Positions 2,070-9,230 of a DNA stretch of 9,230 nucleotides are shown in pieces; position 1 is the stretch's first letter, and every line of letters begins with the position of its first letter. Under the pieces are notes generated by a model, which saw only the letters and a program-made list of their open reading frames with translations, was not told where the DNA came from and ran no database searches. The position numbers were made by a program, and so were the translations under genes. Source of the stretch: a virus (Duplodnaviria; Heunggongvirae; Uroviricota; Caudoviricetes); the IMG/VR virus record IMGVR_UViG_2582580966_000002, one strand, 5' to 3'.

Positions 2070-2172
2070 ACAGCCTTCCCCTGAATAAATTAACCGCCAC
2101 TTGCCATTCCGTACAGAAGTCGGATATCCTTCGCCCGAAAAGCATGAAACACATTTCTGCCATGCTAAAGAG

Positions 2173-2202
2173 AAACCCCGGTATCAGCAGATACCGGGGT
2201 TT
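2173..2202. terminator. Bidirectional intrinsic terminator-like hairpin: perfect 12-bp stem AAACCCCGGTAT/ATACCGGGGTTT, 6-nt loop CAGCAG
   Basis: Perfect inverted repeat at 2173-2184 and 2191-2202. It is followed by TCTTTC on the plus strand and by TTTCTCTTT on the minus strand, so it could terminate in both directions. Confidence 0.6.
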
Positions 2203-2274
2203 TCTTTCATGCCCACCGATAATCCTGTTGGTTAAAACCGGTAATGGCATAAAAATTCTGAATATCTTCACATT

Positions 2275-2308: not shown

Positions 2309-2405
2309 GCGTTAATTTTTTTTTCGTGATATAAGAATAATTCCTTACACTTAATCTTCGTAACTCTCCCGCAGTTCCTGTCCGCGATCACTGCGGGATT
2401 TTTTT
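2309..2405 (+). ncRNA. Candidate small non-coding RNA (~95 nt) from the promoter at 2275-2302 to the terminator at 2367-2405
   Basis: Strong promoter and intrinsic terminator about 100 bp apart on the same strand. The interval has no plausible ORF (only GTG-ATA-TAA), is AU-rich, and ends in a hairpin plus U-tail, as Hfq-dependent sRNAs typically do. It runs opposite to all flanking phage genes. Confidence 0.45.
2367..2405 (+). terminator. Intrinsic terminator: 9-bp perfect stem TCCCGCAGT/ACTGCGGGA (2367-2375 / 2390-2398), 14-nt loop, T7 tract 2399-2405
   Basis: Read directly from the sequence. The T-tract is only on the plus-strand side, so it is unidirectional. The loop is longer than in typical terminators. 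Confidence 0.6.
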
Positions 2406-2412
2406 ATTCTTT

Positions 2413-3042
2413 TTACCCCTGCCGCCCGATAACCACGACCTTTCCGCCCCCGCCTTCATCACGGGTGCTGATGTCCTGGGATATACGGCGGGAGCCAACC
2501 AGCATTTCCCCGTAAGGCACCGGCATCGGGTTCCCCTGGGCAATCATGTTATCCAGCGAGGAAAAGTACGTGTTCTGTCTGCCGTTATCCGTTGCGCGGT
2601 AATCCGGTGTTTTTGCCTTCGGGGCCAGCATCTGGGCCACACCGCCCAGTATCATGCTGGCACCCAGTGAAAACAGCATCGTGGTGGCAGAAAAACCACC
2701 GGCACTCAGGGCTGTACCCCATAACGCCATCGAGCCTCCGGCCGTGAAGAAAGAGCCCACGATGGCTGCCGCCCCCAACACAATCTGCAGTCCACCCTTT
2801 CCGGCCCCGGCCAGTCGCGGCACAATGTGGATGACCGTTCCCTCACCCAGCTGTTCGTGAAGGCGGGCGTACACCACCTCCGGTGCCGTGTCTTCACCGG
2901 CAATACGTATCTGGTACCAGCCTTCGTTCATCTGAAGGCGAAAGCCCGGCATCTGCATCGACAGGGCGCGAATGGCTTCCGCTGCCGTGTTCACATACAG
3001 GCTGAGGCGGCGGCCAAATCGTTGTAAATCCCCGTGGTTGCC
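2413..3042 (-). pseudogene. I: Tail assembly protein gpI lacking its native N-terminus (~20 codons) and start codon
   Basis: ORF 2413..3078: ...GDLQRFGRRLSLYVNTAAEAIRAL...QNTYFSSLDNMIAQGN...GGGKVVVIGRQG matches lambda gpI from about residue 21 to the end. The first 15 residues of the track ORF (MMVEAVISGSTVGNH) are FII DNA in another frame. Confidence 0.85.
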
Positions 3043-3364
3043 CACGGTTGAGCCAGAGATAACAGCTTCCACCATCATCCGGCGAAACCCGGTCTATCCA
3101 GAAGTTTTCCTCACCGATGGTCAGCGTGTCTCCACGCCGCAGTTGCCGCACATCATCAGTCCGGACAAACAGGGACGGGCTGGAGCCTTCAACGCGCACG
3201 CCCTGTCCGGCATAGCTGATATTTTCAGGGTCATCAAAAACACCACGTATTACTGCGCCGGACTGCTCACCGGATGTCATGGTGGCTGACGTTCCCATGT
3301 ACCCGCGTATCGTTTCATCGGCGCGGGCAATGGCAGCATCGAACAGGTTATCGAAATCAGCCAC
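2894..3364 (-). pseudogene. FII: Head-tail connector gpFII with altered C-terminus: native residues 1 to ~108, then read-through into I-derived DNA in the wrong frame (48 foreign residues)
   Basis: ORF begins MADFDNLFDAAIARADETIRGYMGTSAT...DRVSPDDGGSCYLWLNRG, matching lambda gpFII (117 aa) up to about residue 108; the following sequence QPRGFTTIWPPPQPV... is not FII. Junction lies near 3037-3042. Confidence 0.8.
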
Positions 3365-3375
3365 AGCGCCTCCCG

Positions 3376-3771
3376 TTATTGCATTCTGGCCAGGCCGCGC
3401 TCTGTCATTTCAGCTGCCACACCGGCAGAGACACGGAACGCCGTTCCCGGCAGCACAAATGCCACAGTGTCATCCCGCGTGGCGTGAAGTGCATCAGTAT
3501 GCAGCGTCACCAGTGCCACGACCGTGACCAGAGCAGCCGTATCAATCACGGTATCCGGCTGCGCTGATACCACCTCATTTTCATGTCCGGTCAGCGCATT
3601 TTCCGGGCTGACAGATGTGTCCTGACCGGCAGCGTCATCCGTGTCATCAAGCTCCTCTTCCAGCTCTGCCACACGGAGCACCAGTTCTTCTTTCGTCCCC
3701 GTCAGGCTGACATCACGGTTCAGTTGCTCACCCAGCACCTGAAGACGGGCAATCAGTTCATCTTTCGTCAT
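3376..3771 (-). CDS. FI: DNA packaging / head completion protein gpFI
   Basis: Within ORF 3376..3810, MTKDELIARLQVLGEQLNRDVSLTGTKEEL...AAEMTERGLARMQ matches lambda gpFI; the start is the Met at residue 14 of the track ORF. Confidence 0.88.
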   Translation of the reverse strand: MTKDELIARLQVLGEQLNRDVSLTGTKEELVLRVAELEEELDDTDDAAGQDTSVSPENALTGHENEVVSAQPDTVIDTAALVTVVALVTLHTDALHATRDDTVAFVLPGTAFRVSAGVAAEMTERGLARMQ

Positions 3772-3812
3772 GGACTCCTCCACAGAGAGAAAATGGCCCC
3801 GAAGGGCCATGA

Positions 3813-4838
3813 TTACGCCAGTTGTACGGACACGAACGCATCAGGATCAGCCAGCAGCATCAGCGGTGCTGACTGAATCATGGTGAACTCACGCGCCGGA
3901 TCGCCGGTGGTCACCCAGTTTTTCGGGTAGCGGGCAGAGGCGTTAATACCTTCGCGCTGTGCGTCCGCATCCTGAATGCAGCCATAGGTGCGCAGACCGC
4001 GTGCCTGAGTGTTCCCCAGCACCATCGTGTTGTCCGGCAGGAAGTTCTTTTTGACGTCGTTTTCCACGTACTGTCCGGAATACACGACGATCGCCGTATC
4101 GCCATACATCCCCTTATAGGACACCGCTTCGCCCAGGTCTTTTACCGCTGTCTCCAGCTCGGAATTAGAGCCGCGACGGGTATCCAGCTTCTCCTTGACG
4201 GCTTTGAAGGAACGGAACAGCGCCCAGCCTTTCGGATCAAACACGATGATATTCACCACGCCGCTGGCGTTCAGCGCGTAGGCTTCGATATCGTCGGTCG
4301 GGTCATACGTGGACTTGTCACGCTTGCTCCACTCCGTGCCGCCGGACTGCGTGATGTTGTTCGCCGCACTGCGGCCCATATCCACCTCAACCGGATCGAA
4401 GGCTTCACCGGTCATGGTGTATTTGCCCTTGAGCACGGCAGAAACGGCCTGCATCTCTTCGACCTGAGCAATGGCCAGCTCTTCGTCACGCATGTTCTGC
4501 ATGATGATGCGACGGCGGCGGTAAGTCGGGTCCGCCAGATTCTGCGGATCTTCATCCGGCAGGCGACGCAGGGTCATCTGCGGATTCACTTCATGCTTGG
4601 GTTTGACATATCCCGGCGTAAATTCAGAGGTGGAGCCGCCACGGGAACGGATAACCTCACCGGAAACAATCGGCGAAACGTACAGCGCCATGTTTACCAG
4701 TCCCGGAATTTGTGAGAGATAGACTTTCTCCGTAGTGAAGGGATAGCTCTCACGGAAAAAGAGACGCAGAAACAGCGGATCAAACTTAAATTTCTGCTCA
4801 TTTGCCGCCAGCAGCTGGGCGGTTGTGTACATCGACAT
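3813..4838 (-). CDS. E: Major capsid protein gpE
   Basis: 341-aa ORF MSMYTTAQLLAANEQKFKFDPLFLRLFFRESYPF...DAFVSVQLA matches lambda gpE in length and sequence; ATG at 4838-4836 verified. Confidence 0.93.
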   Translation of the reverse strand: MSMYTTAQLLAANEQKFKFDPLFLRLFFRESYPFTTEKVYLSQIPGLVNMALYVSPIVSGEVIRSRGGSTSEFTPGYVKPKHEVNPQMTLRRLPDEDPQNLADPTYRRRRIIMQNMRDEELAIAQVEEMQAVSAVLKGKYTMTGEAFDPVEVDMGRSAANNITQSGGTEWSKRDKSTYDPTDDIEAYALNASGVVNIIVFDPKGWALFRSFKAVKEKLDTRRGSNSELETAVKDLGEAVSYKGMYGDTAIVVYSGQYVENDVKKNFLPDNTMVLGNTQARGLRTYGCIQDADAQREGINASARYPKNWVTTGDPAREFTMIQSAPLMLLADPDAFVSVQLA

Positions 4839-4893: not shown

Positions 4894-5226
4894 TTAAACG
4901 ATGCTGATTGCCGTTCCGGCAAACGCGGTCCGTTTTTTCGTCTCGTCGCTGGCAGCCTCCGGCCAGAGCACATCCTCATAACGGAACGTGCCGGACTTGT
5001 AGAACGTCAGCGTGGTGCTGGTCTGGTCAGCAGCAACCGCAAGAATGCCAACGGCAGCACCGTCGGTGGTGCCATCCCACGCAACCAGCTTACGGGTGGA
5101 GGTGTCCAGCATCAGCGGGGTCATTGCAGGCGCTTTCGCACTCAATCCGCCGGGCGCGGTTGCGGTATGAGCCGGGTCACTGTTGCCCAGCGGCTGGTAA
5201 TGGGTAAAGGTTTCTTTGCTCGTCAT
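4894..5226 (-). CDS. D: Head decoration protein gpD
   Basis: [27 protein letters not shown]...[10 protein letters not shown], 110 aa, matches lambda gpD. The track ORF starts two codons upstream (MFM...). Confidence 0.92.
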
Positions 5227-5235
5227 AAACATCCC

Positions 5236-5841
5236 TTACACTGGTGTGTTCAGCAAATCGTTAACGGCATCAGATGCCAGGTTACCTGCAGCCAGCGGTG
5301 CCGGTGCCCCCTGCATCAGACGATCCAGCGCAGTATCACTGCGCGCCTGTGCACTCTGTGGTGCTGCGGCCAGAATGCGGCGGGCCGTTTCCACGGTCAT
5401 ACCGGGGGGTTCTGCCAGCACGCGGGCCTGTTCTTCGCGTCCGTGAGCCTCCTCACAGTTGAGGATCCCCATAATGCGGCTGTTTTCTGCCGCAACCGCA
5501 GCGTTGATCTGCGCGTTCACGTCCGGCTGCGCCGCGCTGGCGTTTTCGCCCTCCATCGCTGGCACCACGCCAGTAACGTCAGCCTGCGAAGCAGTGGCTG
5601 AAACAGTTGTTGATTGAGTCTCTTTGGTCATTCGCCCTCCTGAGAGACGGGATTTACGTGCATCCAGTGCATCACGCATGATGGTGATCGCATCGGTACT
5701 GTTAACAAGTTCATCAGCCAGTCCGGCATCAATGGCCTCCTGACCGCTGTACACTGCAGCCTCGGTATCCAGCACAGCCTGCACGGACAGGCCGGTATAT
5801 GCCGACACCTTCTGTGCAAACATCCGGCGGGTTGCATCCAT
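5236..5841 (-). CDS. Nu3: Scaffolding protein Nu3, in-frame internal start within C
   Basis: ATG at 5841-5839 (verified on the sequence) begins MDATRRMFAQKVSAYTGLSVQ... in the C frame; 201 codons to the shared stop, as for lambda Nu3. Confidence 0.75.
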   Translation of the reverse strand: MDATRRMFAQKVSAYTGLSVQAVLDTEAAVYSGQEAIDAGLADELVNSTDAITIMRDALDARKSRLSGGRMTKETQSTTVSATASQADVTGVVPAMEGENASAAQPDVNAQINAAVAAENSRIMGILNCEEAHGREEQARVLAEPPGMTVETARRILAAAPQSAQARSDTALDRLMQGAPAPLAAGNLASDAVNDLLNTPV

Positions 5842-6555
5842 CCGGGACTGCAGTGTTTCCCGGACATCATCCGGTAGATGGCTGTAGGGGTTGCCATCCA
5901 CCTTATGGCTGCCGCTGTAAATCAGCGTGATTTCCACGCCCTGTTTCTCCAGCGCAGCACCGTAATTACTGTGAGCCATCATGACGCCGATGGAGCCTGT
6001 CCGGGCGGTCTGCGTGACCAGACGCCGGGAGGCGGCACTGGCAAGCAGCTGACCTGCGCTGCAGTTCATGTCATTGGCCAGCGCCCATACCGGCTTTATG
6101 TCACGCACACGGGCGATGATGTCAGCGCAGTCAAATGCCCCTGCCACCATTCCGCCGGGCGTGTCCATATCCAGCAGAATGCCGTCCACCATCGGGTCGC
6201 TGGCAGCCTGTTGCAGACGGGCGATAATGCCGTTGTAACCAGTCATCCCCGAATACGGCTGCAGCGCCCGCGTCCGGCAGACCAGCGTGCCGGAAACCGG
6301 CAGCACGGCGATGCCGTTCATGACCTGATAACTGCGGGCCTGTCGTGGTCCGTCATCATTAACGGATAACGCCAGCTTCGCGGGTGCCTCTCCGGCAGTC
6401 AGGCTGTCACCGGACACCGCATCCGTCAGGCGGCTGATCCCAAGCTGGCCTGCAAGCGCACAAAAGAAAACCCGCGCATAGGCGGGTTCAAGCATAAGCG
6501 GCTCATTAAAGGCCATGCTGGCAATATGCGGGAGATTACGCAGCTCTGCTGTCAC
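5236..6555 (-). CDS. C: Head maturation protease / scaffold processing protein gpC
   Basis: ORF 5236..6690 contains VTAELRNLPHIASMAFNEPLMLEPAYARVFF...AVNDLLNTPV, matching lambda gpC (439 aa). The native start is the GTG at 6555-6553, giving 439 codons and a 20-nt overlap with the B stop; the upstream part of the track ORF is B read in another frame. Confidence 0.9.
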   Translation of the reverse strand: MTAELRNLPHIASMAFNEPLMLEPAYARVFFCALAGQLGISRLTDAVSGDSLTAGEAPAKLALSVNDDGPRQARSYQVMNGIAVLPVSGTLVCRTRALQPYSGMTGYNGIIARLQQAASDPMVDGILLDMDTPGGMVAGAFDCADIIARVRDIKPVWALANDMNCSAGQLLASAASRRLVTQTARTGSIGVMMAHSNYGAALEKQGVEITLIYSGSHKVDGNPYSHLPDDVRETLQSRMDATRRMFAQKVSAYTGLSVQAVLDTEAAVYSGQEAIDAGLADELVNSTDAITIMRDALDARKSRLSGGRMTKETQSTTVSATASQADVTGVVPAMEGENASAAQPDVNAQINAAVAAENSRIMGILNCEEAHGREEQARVLAEPPGMTVETARRILAAAPQSAQARSDTALDRLMQGAPAPLAAGNLASDAVNDLLNTPV

Positions 6556-7708
6556 TCTTCTCCTCCTCTGTTGATTGTCGCAGTCCGGATTCAAATGCCG
6601 CAGCCGCCCAGGCGGGCGGTTTAAGACCGGCTGCACGGCGCTCCATCGTTTCACGGACCTGCTGGGCAAAAATTTCCTGATAGTCGTCACCGCGTTTTGC
6701 GCACTCTTTCTCGTAGGTACTCAGTCCGGCTTCTATCAGCATCACCGCTTCCTGTACTTCTTTCAGACCATCGATGGCCATACGACCGGAGCCTATCCAG
6801 TCACAGTTCCCCCAGGCGCTGCGGGCTTCCTGAAAGCTGAAACGCGCTTTTGAAGGTAACGTCACCACGCGGCGAACGATGGCCTCTTCCAGCCAGCACA
6901 GAAACATCTGGCTCGCCTGACGGGATGCGACGAATTTTCGCCGCCCCATAAAGTACGCCCACGACTCGTTCGCACTGGCCCGTGCCGTGGAATAGCTCAT
7001 CTGGGCGTAATTCCGGGAAAGCTGCTCATACGAGACACCCAGCCCGGCAGCGATATACCGCAACAGTGACTGCTCAAACACGGAGTAGCCGTTATCCGTA
7101 TCCTGAGCCGTCTGCAGGTTCAGTGAGTCACCCGGCATCAGGTGCGGCACTTTTGCGCCTCCCAGCCGAACCGGTGCTGCGGCGTAATACGCGGCAATTT
7201 CACCAATCCAGCCGGTCAGCTTGTCCCGCTGCTCCTGACTGTTCGCGCCCAGAATAAAATCCATCGCTGACTGCGTATCCAGCTCACTCTCAATGGTGGC
7301 GGCATACATCGCCTTCACAATGGCGCTCTGCAGCTGCGTGTTCTGCAGCGTGTCGAGCATCTTCATCTGCTCCATCACGCTGTAAAACACATTTGCACCG
7401 CGGGTCTGCCCGTCCTCCACGGGTTCAAAAACGTGAATGAACGAGGCGCGCCCGCCGGGTAACTCACGGGGTATCCATGTCCATTTCTGCGGCATCCAGC
7501 CAGGATAGCCGTCCTCGCTGACGTAATATCCCAGCGCCGCACCGCTGTCATTAATCTGCACACCGGCACGGCAGTTCCGGCTGTCGCCGGTATTGTTCGG
7601 GTTGCTGATGCGCTTCGGGCTGACCATCCGGAACTGTGTCCGGAAAAGCCACGACGGACTGGTATCCCAGGTGGCCTGAACGAACAGTTCACCGTTAAAG
7701 GCGTGCAT
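6536..7708 (-). pseudogene. B: Portal protein gpB, N-terminally truncated (~140 codons missing; remnant begins at MHAFNGELFVQATWDT)
   Basis: ORF 6536..7732 (the track start is a TTG; first ATG at 7708-7706). The protein from MHAFNGELFV to ...STEEEKSDSRAA matches the C-terminal ~390 residues of lambda gpB (533 aa). It lacks its own start region and ribosome-binding site, and lies in the same frame as A immediately after the A stop codon. Confidence 0.85.
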
Positions 7709-7751
7709 GCAGTGCCGCACGGGCAGCGGCAAGTTCTTCCTGTCGCGTCAT
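7695..7751 (-). pseudogene. W: Head-tail joining gene W remnant: first 15 codons only ([15 protein letters not shown]), then 3 foreign codons and TAA
   Basis: Hand translation of the minus strand from ATG 7751-7749 gives [18 protein letters not shown]-stop. The first 15 residues equal the lambda gpW N-terminus ([21 protein letters not shown]...); sequence after codon 15 is B-derived, read out of frame. Confidence 0.8.
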
Positions 7752-9230
7752 TCATCCTCTCCGGATAAGGCACGGGCGTAATCTGCCAGTGTTTTCTTGT
7801 TGGTTGCTGCACCATCCTCTTCCTTCAGGCTCGCCAGCAGTGCACTGAGATCCAGCTGCCAGCGGGAAATACTGATGCGCAGCGCCGCCAGCGCATAAAC
7901 GAAGCAGTCGAGCGCCTCATTGCGTCGTTTTTTGCTGTCCCACAGTATTTTTTTCCTGCCATCCACCCATTTTTCGACCTGCTCTTCAGCCGTCAGCTGC
8001 TGCGCTTCGGTCAGATCAAAAATATCCGGGTTATTCGGGAAGTGAACGGCACCGGGAAGCGGTTCATCCCCTTCCGGCGTCAGTGTGAAGCGGTTATAAA
8101 TCTGCTCTTTCGCGGTATCCGTACCGATTTCGGTAAGGTAAACCCCGTTTTTGTTTCGCTTACGTGGCATGCTGGCCACCGGCTTTCCGTAGACGGATGC
8201 CCCTTTAATGGGGATCCCCCGGAACAGCCCATGTTTTTTCGAGCGTTCATACACGATGGTCGGGTCAATCCCGCCAGTATCCCAGCAGATACGGGATACC
8301 GACATTTCTGCACCATTCCGGCGGGTATAGGTTTTATTGATGGCCTCATCCACACGCAGCAGCGTCTGTTCATCGTCGTGGCGGCCCATAATAATCTGCC
8401 GATCAATCAGCCAGCTTTCCTCACCCGGCCCCCATCCCCATACGCGCATTTCGTAGCGATCCAGCTGGGAGTCGATACCGGCGGTCAGGTAAGCCACACG
8501 GTCAGGAACGGGCGCTGAATAATGCTCTTTCCGCTCTGCCATCACTTCAGCATCCGGACGTTCGCCAATTTTCGCCTCCCACGTCTCACCGAGCGTGGTG
8601 TTTACGAAGGTTTTACGTTTTCCCGTATCCCCTTTCGTTTTCATCCAGTCTTTGACAATCTGCACCCAGGTGGTGAACGGGCTGTACGCTGTCCAGATGT
8701 GAAAGGTCACACTGTCAGGTGGCTCAATCTCTTCACCGGATGACGAAAACCAGAGAATGCCATCACGGGTCCAGATCCCGGTCTTTTCGCAGATATAACG
8801 GGCATCAGTAAAGTCCAGCTCCTGCTGGCAGATGACGCAGGCATTATGCTCGCAGAGATAAAACACGCTGGAGGGGTCATCCGGCGTCCATTTGAGGCCA
8901 AACGGCGTCTCTTTGTCGCCAAATTTAAGATACTGCTCCTCCCCGCAGTGCGGGCAGGCAACATGAAAACGCATAAAATGCGGGGATTCACTGGCTGCAC
9001 GCTCAATCTGGCAGGTGCCTCTCACTTTGGGCGTGGAGCCACGGATGGACTTTGGCCAGACCGAGCCTTCAATACGCTTATCGCCCAGGAACGTCGGAGA
9101 GCCTTCCTGTTCAATATCCTCATCAAAGGCAGCAAGTTCATCATACCCCGCCACATCCACTGACTTTTCACGGTAGTTTTTTGCCGCTTTACCGCCCAGG
9201 CACCAGAAGCCACGACCATTGGAAAAACGC
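7748..9230 (-). CDS. A: Terminase large subunit gpA, 3' portion (N-terminal ~150 codons lie beyond the window edge)
   Basis: ORF 7748..9160 and its open upstream extension to the window edge (frame hand-translated to ...RFSNGRGFWCLGGKAAKNYREKS before the GTG at 9160). The C-terminus ...KKTLADYARALSGEDE matches lambda gpA as I recall it. Stop TGA at 7748-7750 overlaps the W ATG (7749-7751) as in lambda. Confidence 0.9.
   Translation of the reverse strand, partial: RFSNGRGFWCLGGKAAKNYREKSVDVAGYDELAAFDEDIEQEGSPTFLGDKRIEGSVWPKSIRGSTPKVRGTCQIERAASESPHFMRFHVACPHCGEEQYLKFGDKETPFGLKWTPDDPSSVFYLCEHNACVICQQELDFTDARYICEKTGIWTRDGILWFSSSGEEIEPPDSVTFHIWTAYSPFTTWVQIVKDWMKTKGDTGKRKTFVNTTLGETWEAKIGERPDAEVMAERKEHYSAPVPDRVAYLTAGIDSQLDRYEMRVWGWGPGEESWLIDRQIIMGRHDDEQTLLRVDEAINKTYTRRNGAEMSVSRICWDTGGIDPTIVYERSKKHGLFRGIPIKGASVYGKPVASMPRKRNKNGVYLTEIGTDTAKEQIYNRFTLTPEGDEPLPGAVHFPNNPDIFDLTEAQQLTAEEQVEKWVDGRKKILWDSKKRRNEALDCFVYALAALRISISRWQLDLSALLASLKEEDGAATNKKTLADYARALSGEDE

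Follow-up and report, generated by a model that had tools for sequence, protein, structure and literature searches.

The perfect palindrome at 2173-2202, which lies between the tail genes I and J of a lambda-like prophage, is probably one allele (class A below) of a conserved Rho-independent terminator that reads in the sense of J and occupies the I-J gap of lambda-like phages. It belongs with J and not with the small RNA gene inserted beside it, and that small RNA has already been described as PasB. Comparison of the loci shows that the position of the hairpin is conserved and that it is independent of pasB; termination itself, and the strand on which it matters, we infer from sequence.

The palindrome and its setting in the prophage

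The window, by which we mean the whole analysed stretch of 9230 nucleotides, derives from a lambda-like prophage with internal deletions, in which every substantial gene lies on the minus strand. In the order of these genes along that strand, it carries a terminase large subunit fragment (7748-9160), the portal gene (6536-7732), the protease gene (5236-6690), D (4894-5232), the major capsid gene E (3813-4838), FI (3376-3810), an FII-like ORF (2894-3364) that runs into the tail assembly gene I (2413-3078) and, beyond a non-coding I-J spacer of 343 bp (2070-2412), an N-terminal remnant of 266 aa of the tail tip protein J with an FNIII-A_GpJ domain (1269-2069) and a tail-fibre gene (13-1296). The prophage in the window is a deletion remnant: the FII-like ORF and gene I share about 185 nt, so that the genes Z through K appear to be missing. 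J ends after 266 codons, where it abuts the tail-fibre gene with its collagen repeats. Intact relatives, an ST131 chromosome among them, have this spacer between undeleted I and J genes as part of a full tail cluster.

Within the spacer, the palindrome is found where the first-pass annotation had placed it, between the J start (2069, minus strand) and a promoter-like site of the plus strand (TTCACA-16-TATAAT, 11/12, 2275-2302). On its J side it adjoins a J leader (2070-2172, minus strand), to which it is constantly linked in the spacer allele that we call class A. On its I side, a conserved A/T-rich box that begins at about 2245 precedes the promoter-like site, and this is followed by the PasB homologue (2322-2405, plus strand), a variant whose 5' end is approximate and whose 3' end is taken as the end of a run of seven T. 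The terminator hairpin of PasB (2367-2398, plus strand, then TTTTTTT) is unidirectional.

The palindrome itself reads AAACCCCGGTATCAGCAGATACCGGGGTTT and consists of two arms of 13 nt (2173-2185 and 2190-2202), which a repeat finder reported as 100% complementary with 4 nt between them (loop AGCA, 2186-2189); the 12-bp stem with a 6-nt loop that had been described before is the same object, one pair short. Its core (2176-2199) is a G/C-rich stem of 10 bp (CCCCGGTATC/GATACCGGGG, dG -18.5 / -19.1 kcal/mol) that can be extended to the 13 perfect pairs. This structure is not a product of chance. Among 2000 dinucleotide-preserving shuffles of the whole 9230-bp window, with loops of 3-8 nt, a perfect stem of at least 13 bp arose in 0.05% (1/2000) and one of at least 12 bp in 0.4%. 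In a context of 56 nt, the RNA folds with -28.7 kcal/mol on the plus strand (z = -7.4) and with -29.9 kcal/mol on the minus strand (z = -6.5), and on either strand none of 200 shuffles was equally stable.

Stem and loop fall within the range of intrinsic terminators (a G/C-rich stem of about 5-14 bp and a loop of 3-8 nt), and the hairpin sits in non-coding DNA at a cistron boundary. The U-rich flanks that had been noted on both strands are indeed present, as GGGG/TTTTCTTTC on the plus strand and GGGG/TTTCTCTTT on the minus strand. Read in the sense of pasB, the G/C core is followed by the T tract TTTTCTTTC (2200-2208, plus strand), and read in the sense of J by TTTCTCTTTAGC (2164-2175, minus strand); the U tracts TTTTCTTT and TTTCTCTT hold 7/8 T on the plus strand and 6/8 T on the minus strand, respectively. 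Terminators were ranked by a d'Aubenton-Carafa type score d, in an own implementation that is a rough yardstick and in which the stem is trimmed to the last G-C pair before scoring. By this measure the palindrome reaches d = 32.9 on the plus strand and d = 22.3 on the minus strand, and PasB's own terminator reaches 30.1. In the trimmed-stem scan of the 9.2-kb window, the palindrome is the sole plus-strand match above 10 and one of three on the minus strand (2199-2176). A simple terminator scan of the window does not list it, because there the stem was extended into the A/T flanks and too few T were left in the tail. The anatomy supports a strong intrinsic terminator, predicted on both strands.

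Features of a bidirectional terminator are thus present on both strands. Such terminators of E. coli are said, from SEnd-seq work, to be symmetric hairpins with A and T tracts between convergent genes, and the palindrome is like them in its mirror-image A/T tracts around a G/C stem and in its positive scores on both strands. However, two convergent transcription units that it could separate are lacking: all genes of the window are on the minus strand, pasB starts downstream of the palindrome, and no known plus-strand gene ends there.

Several further hairpins were seen in the window. Just upstream of the tail-fibre gene start (1296), a strong sense-strand terminator-like hairpin at 1333-1314 (minus strand; GCCCGCCGGTTCTGGTGGGC then TTTTTTGTGG, d = 30) has the same layout, a terminator in front of a late gene, as the pre-J hairpin. 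At the E/FI junction, a hairpin at 3810-3793 (minus strand; ATGGCCC-TTCG-GGGCCAT then TTTCTCTC) overlaps the FI start codon and may serve to stabilise or attenuate the mRNA behind the capsid gene. Four identical terminator-like matches of the plus strand (TGCGGCTCCCGTA TCTCCTTTTG; 307-319, 442-454, 487-499 and 577-589) derive from the collagen-like repeat in the tail-fibre gene, of which they are antisense copies, and make the terminator count of the simple scan too high. The class A leader contains a small inverted repeat, AGCATG-N14-CATGCT, at 2137-2166 (plus strand), which adjoins the main hairpin, as well as GGATATCC at about 2123-2130.

PasB, the small RNA encoded next to the palindrome

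The candidate small RNA unit of the first-pass annotation turned out to be a genuine sRNA gene that encodes a variant of PasB, with a match in published locus, probe and orientation. PasB is an Hfq-dependent sRNA of 83 nt that is known from RIL-seq of the EPEC strain E2348/69 and is encoded in its prophage PP6 (PMC8550237, table S6), where the gene is flanked by E2348C_1436 (I) and E2348C_1437 (J) and runs antisense to the two of them (PMC8550237). According to a 2026 preprint, PasB sits within a phage structural-gene operon and is widespread in E. coli (10.64898/2026.05.13.724894). The E2348/69 gene (NC_011601 1466261-1466343) was aligned to 2325-2405 of the window with 63 identical positions; its 3' 25 nt are identical to the window and the body diverges. 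Within the identical 3' stretch fall 19 of the 23 bases of the PasB probe, and the 5'-most four (AGCT) are CTGT in the window. The window gene, too, is transcribed antisense to the tail genes I and J. The published 5' end of PasB maps about 20 nt downstream of the start expected from the TATAAT box, and either the RNA is processed or this RNA-seq-based end is approximate. A search of the whole window against Rfam 15 (E <= 1), which holds no PasB model, returned nothing in 2070-2412 and two chance matches near 5700-5800. In EPEC RNA-seq data, the base means of PasB are 482 and 1082 in two comparisons, and those of I and J are 5 and 15; PasB drops strongly in the comparison with a pasB log2FC of -6.8.

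Three Hfq-CRAC peaks of O157 Sakai, EcOnc22, EcOnc23 and EcOnc24, lie in the I-J spacers of the prophages Sp15, Sp14 and Sp11, respectively, and EcOnc22 gives a band of about 85 nt that is destabilised without Hfq (Tree et al. 2014). By their published coordinates, 22-84 nt from the J starts, these peaks could overlap the hairpin region. This was rejected once their coordinates had been moved from NC_002695.1 to NC_002695.2 by about +137 to +146 nt, a shift calibrated on AgvB at 1.94 Mb; the three peaks then coincide with the PasB homologue. The PasB of the window thus probably corresponds to EcOnc22-24 of O157 Sakai. In the accessible parts of the literature on these sRNAs, we found neither a statement of this equivalence nor, for PasB or EcOnc22-24, a mention of the palindrome. 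The hairpin was also considered as the end of HnrS/EcOnc10-12 (HnrS is a 66-nt EHEC prophage sRNA) and rejected as such, as those are encoded upstream of packaging genes, for example at 2234239-2234287 in Sp12.

Spacer alleles and hairpins in phages without pasB

Of 5426 complete E. coli genomes, 1659 contain the whole 343-bp spacer, 1445 of them at a coverage of at least 80%, and 615 records are at least 99% identical to it. The class A module is present and 100% identical in 13 GenBank phages, and a distant blastn search of 50,697 phage records with this module returned only these 13 identical copies and no other relatives. The exact 30-mer has 112 copies in IMG/VR. In all 112 the left context, which is the J leader, is identical, and the right context, which is the pasB promoter box, is identical except in two loci. 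One of these (L152) has a rearrangement at the pasB promoter. In the other (L099; IMG/VR 2541047932_000014), a putative IS insertion, whose translation resembles an IS transposase, begins 18 nt from the hairpin on the pasB side; it leaves the hairpin and the J leader intact and cuts them off from pasB. A recurrence of the palindrome outside this context was not borne out: across species-representative genomes, the stem with any loop was found only as the same module in E. albertii and as chance matches in unrelated MAGs. Each prophage contains the palindrome once, in constant context. Class A varies by single-base length changes in the flanking A and T runs and is otherwise essentially invariant, so that it offers no covariation of its own.

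Spacers were taken from 80 IMG/VR loci picked by the J N-terminus, of which nine without a gene I anchor were left out of the classes. The remainder fall into class A with about 340 bp (20 loci), which carries the hairpin of the window, class B with 234-260 bp (44 loci), which carries a different hairpin in the same slot, and a sodC class with 851 bp (7 loci), in which sodC, oriented like pasB, stands in place of the hairpin and the promoter of pasB. The pasB terminator is common to all three classes and the conserved promoter box is common to A and B; just J-ward of this box, the sequences of A and B are wholly different. In the 851-bp class, the inserted gene encodes a Cu/Zn superoxide dismutase (Pfam Sod_Cu), and behind sodC and its own hairpin, the body and terminator of pasB are still present; PasB might here be made by read-through from sodC, or might be silent.

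The class B hairpin reads ACAGGCAYCC-TCCG-GGRTGCCTGT then TGTTTTTGTG in the sense of J. It scores d = 5 to 25 in this sense and -13 to -62 on the other strand, as expected of a terminator in the J-sense only. Like the class A hairpin, it lies immediately J-ward of the pasB promoter box and is followed by a T tract in the sense of J (E2348/69 PP6; Sakai Sp11, Sp14 and Sp15; PhiR5_1), but it differs in its unrelated sequence, its stem of 8-10 bp, the restriction of the T tract to the J-sense and its compensatory variation. Across 14 distinct class B sequences, 98.6% of the cells are paired, one pair alternates between U-A (6), U.G (2) and C-G (5), and eight G.U cells would be mismatches if they were read on the opposite strand. 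This covariation is modest, as one pair is changed on both sides, the score was reached by 31 of 500 shuffles, and one variant contains a C.A mismatch in the sense of J. The spacers of E2348/69 and of Sakai Sp11, Sp14 and Sp15 have the class B length, with 240 bp; in E2348/69 and Sp11, the hairpin, too, was seen to be that of class B.

The type of hairpin follows the J leader and not the PasB variant. Class A comes with the J leader that ends with CAGGGGAAGGCTGT in all loci examined here, and it is combined with at least four variants of the PasB body, which are in turn found with class B and with other J leaders; the linkage counts include contigs that were fetched twice, and only their pattern is used here. 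This pattern places the recombination boundary in the stretch that separates the pasB promoter box from the hairpin. Among the PasB-type loci, a J-sense match is found within 500 nt before J in 49/64, and opposite-strand matches occur only in class A, for which all 18 loci scanned have one. The hairpin is thus not inherited together with pasB, and the earlier proposal of an insulated cassette that is bracketed by two terminators finds no support here, all the more since like hairpins occur in phages that have no pasB.

Seven such phages were found with a hairpin in the I-J gap, in each case in the sense of J and with d = 18.6-39.5. These are lambda (60-bp gap; GAAACCGCC-TGCG-GGCGGTTTTGTCATTT, J02459 ~15467-15489), HK629 (60-bp gap; hairpin as in lambda), PhiR42_1 (59-bp gap; CCGCC-TCCG-GGCGG TTTTGTCG), mEp235 (52-bp gap; GGCCACC-TTCG-GGTGGC TTTTTT), mEp237 (52-bp gap; GGCCACC-TCAG-GGTGGCC TTTTTT), phiES15 (50-bp gap; GGCCGCC-TCCG-GGCGGC TTTTTT) and LF82-10 (77-bp gap; GCCCGC-CTTGC-GCGGG TTTTTTTT). 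The hairpin does not disappear where the inserted gene is absent, and it therefore appears to predate the sRNA insertion. In ES18, the I-J gap of 9 bp contains no hairpin.

The same position is seen in HK022/mEp235-like loci of IMG/VR, where 78 sense-strand matches in 81 loci lie within 100 nt upstream of J. Elsewhere in these 3.7-kb loci there are almost no matches, save for another group of sense-strand terminator-like hairpins, which lies near the K/I boundary, about 700 nt before J, in 38/81 loci. Several of the loci contain unrelated DNA between I and the hairpin, and the hairpin still adjoins J. The palindrome of the window likewise forms a J-sense hairpin that is followed by a T tract and placed after the I stop and before the J start, with foreign DNA on the I side, and it is like the lambda-type hairpins in position, orientation and build, which comprises a G/C stem, a tetraloop, a T tract and often an upstream A run. 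It differs from them in that its stem has 13 perfect pairs and not 5-8, in that it lies 103 nt and not 10-20 nt from the J start, and in that a good T tract follows its stem on the other strand as well. Sequence similarity to other pre-J hairpins is absent outside the class A module, and membership in the pre-J terminator group of lambda-like tail operons, a grouping that we propose here, is positional and architectural only. In the literature searched, of which the classical lambda literature is largely not a part, no I-J terminator was found to be named or tested in lambda.

Proposed termination before J and competing explanations

One rival explanation is a selected bidirectional insulator of the pasB unit. 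Its plus-strand stop would shield the pasB promoter from occlusion by transcription antisense to J and would bracket, together with the PasB terminator, an autonomous cassette. The higher score of the plus strand (32.9), the nearly mirror-symmetric flanks, the Sakai Sp12 palindrome at NC_002695.2 2217489-2217528, which a length change in the flanking runs makes perfect over 18 bp including the A/T tracts, and the antisense-strand match in all 18 class A loci scanned speak for this. We nevertheless consider it rather unlikely, as the hairpin is inherited along with the J leader rather than with pasB, equivalent hairpins occur in phages without pasB, and class B serves the same pasB promoter without a plus-strand T tract (d = -13 to -62). 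The window also has no convergent plus-strand gene and no strong plus-strand promoter upstream, the only candidate being a 9/12 match at 2101-2130. Moreover, one-way terminators, too, are known to be enhanced by an A tract upstream. A role in the stability or processing of the late mRNA, once Q-modified polymerase has passed the hairpin, either as a 3'-exonuclease barrier that guards M-L-K-I or as a cleavage site that uncouples J, would be in line with the cistron-boundary position, which is conserved in many lambda-like phages, and with the further sense-strand hairpins at gene junctions, namely at 1333-1314 before the tail-fibre gene and at 3810-3793 between E and FI. In every allele, however, a T tract directly follows the stem, which is needed for termination and not for an exonuclease barrier, and we regard this role as a reasonable but rather unlikely rival.

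The remaining explanations are far less probable. The palindrome could terminate an unrecognised plus-strand small RNA of about 70 nt that starts at about 2138 from a weak promoter at 2101-2130 (TTGCCA-18-TATCCT), and the predicted RNA (2130-2215) does have a 5' hairpin and a terminator. This is quite improbable, as the promoter-like match (9/12) is at shuffle level, with 5 such sites against a shuffle mean of 3.8; for the Sp12 class A hairpin, moreover, no Hfq-bound peak is listed (Tree et al. 2014, table S2), a weak argument insofar as the Sp12 copy of pasB is unlisted there, too. The first-pass annotation had also raised a protein-binding site, and the perfect dyad symmetry of 13 + 13 bp could fit a dimeric repressor, recombinase or nucleoid protein. 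This is very improbable: the palindrome occurs once per prophage in constant context, the genome scan found only the same module in E. albertii and chance matches, and in other alleles unrelated sequences with the same RNA architecture of hairpin and T tract take its place, with G.U pairs that are sensible only in RNA. Finally, that the palindrome is part of a small protein-coding gene is hardly credible, even though a 'hypothetical protein' gp9c of 66 aa (phage ASU11) and a 'tail fiber protein' of 77 aa (vB_EcoS-569R3) are annotated and the frame is open in most copies. These copies are near-identical, so that an open frame is no argument; in several loci, indels of one base in the A/T tracts shorten the frame to 29 aa or join it to J, the tracts of Sakai Sp12 also contain a 1-nt indel, and there is neither a Shine-Dalgarno sequence nor a Pfam family. 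The ORF annotated across the hairpin was accordingly rejected as a gene.

In lambda, late transcription starts at pR', and the Q-modified polymerase that carries it out is not stopped by intrinsic terminators, whereas unmodified polymerase is. If the palindrome is a J-sense terminator, as we favour, the nascent J-sense RNA would fold the 10-bp G/C core directly ahead of UUUCUCUUU, and unmodified RNA polymerase would be released. In the lysogen, stray or moron-derived transcription past gene I, which here would also run antisense to pasB, would be kept out of J and beyond, and in lytic growth the Q-modified polymerase would read through the hairpin. As a promoter scan of the window found no promoter-like site between the palindrome and J, J would need this read-through, and the hairpin would act as a conditional gate that is closed in the lysogen and open in lytic growth. 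The claim that the palindrome stops late-operon read-through before J can thus be kept as far as a J-sense terminator is predicted, but J must be transcribed through it, and the block would hold for unmodified polymerase only. A tested terminator of a mobile element, although from another element and another host, likewise bars outside or premature transcription until antitermination; the function was tested there and is predicted here.

A stop for plus-strand transcripts that come from the J side had been suggested as well, and it is indeed predicted for class A (d = 32.9), where the near mirror-image A and T tracts would also halt plus-strand transcription that leaves J toward the pasB promoter. 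The plus-strand T tract has no counterpart in class B, though, and as class B has its T tract in the J-sense only, the conserved function would be the J-sense one. The plus-strand activity may therefore be specific to the class A allele and possibly incidental, and termination on this strand may be a by-product of the upstream A tract; that it has been selected is possible rather than demonstrated. Several points count against the J-sense terminator: class A offers no covariation and that of class B is modest, the J-sense transcription to be stopped in a lysogen is hypothetical, with base means of 5 and 15 for I and J in EPEC RNA-seq, the sodC class (851 bp) and ES18 lack the hairpin, which is thus not indispensable, and on sequence alone the plus strand scores above the minus strand.

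The pasB gene, and in other alleles sodC or other DNA, would have been inserted between I and the pre-existing hairpin. Morons of lambdoid phages are units of promoter, gene and terminator that have been inserted among the late genes (Juhala et al. 2000, cited by PMC4104026 and PMC3594210), and the I-J junction likewise holds autonomous units, pasB and sodC, with their own promoter and terminator. However, the palindrome is not the terminator of a moron, as it lies upstream of the moron promoter, is inherited with J and is present without the moron. A speculative and improbable extension is that J-sense transcripts which cross pasB and stop at the hairpin form discrete RNAs with a hairpin and U tail at the end and full complementarity to PasB, which act as an anti-PasB sponge or RNase III substrate, that PasB in turn limits J, and that the Q-dependent gate makes the I-J junction a preferred docking site for morons. 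If such pairing took place, leaky or induced late transcription would titrate PasB.

These findings correct the picture of the PasB locus: the sRNA gene lies between I and a stop signal that appears to be older, and the two recombine independently of each other. In this spacer form, about a quarter of complete E. coli genomes (1445/5426) contain PasB. A predicted sense-strand terminator before J recurs across otherwise unrelated lambda-like tail operons, with foreign DNA such as pasB, sodC and others on the I side. If J is truly gated by Q antitermination, this would help to explain why lysogenic-conversion cargo gathers at the I-J junction, and how such cargo can be expressed without switching on the tail genes.
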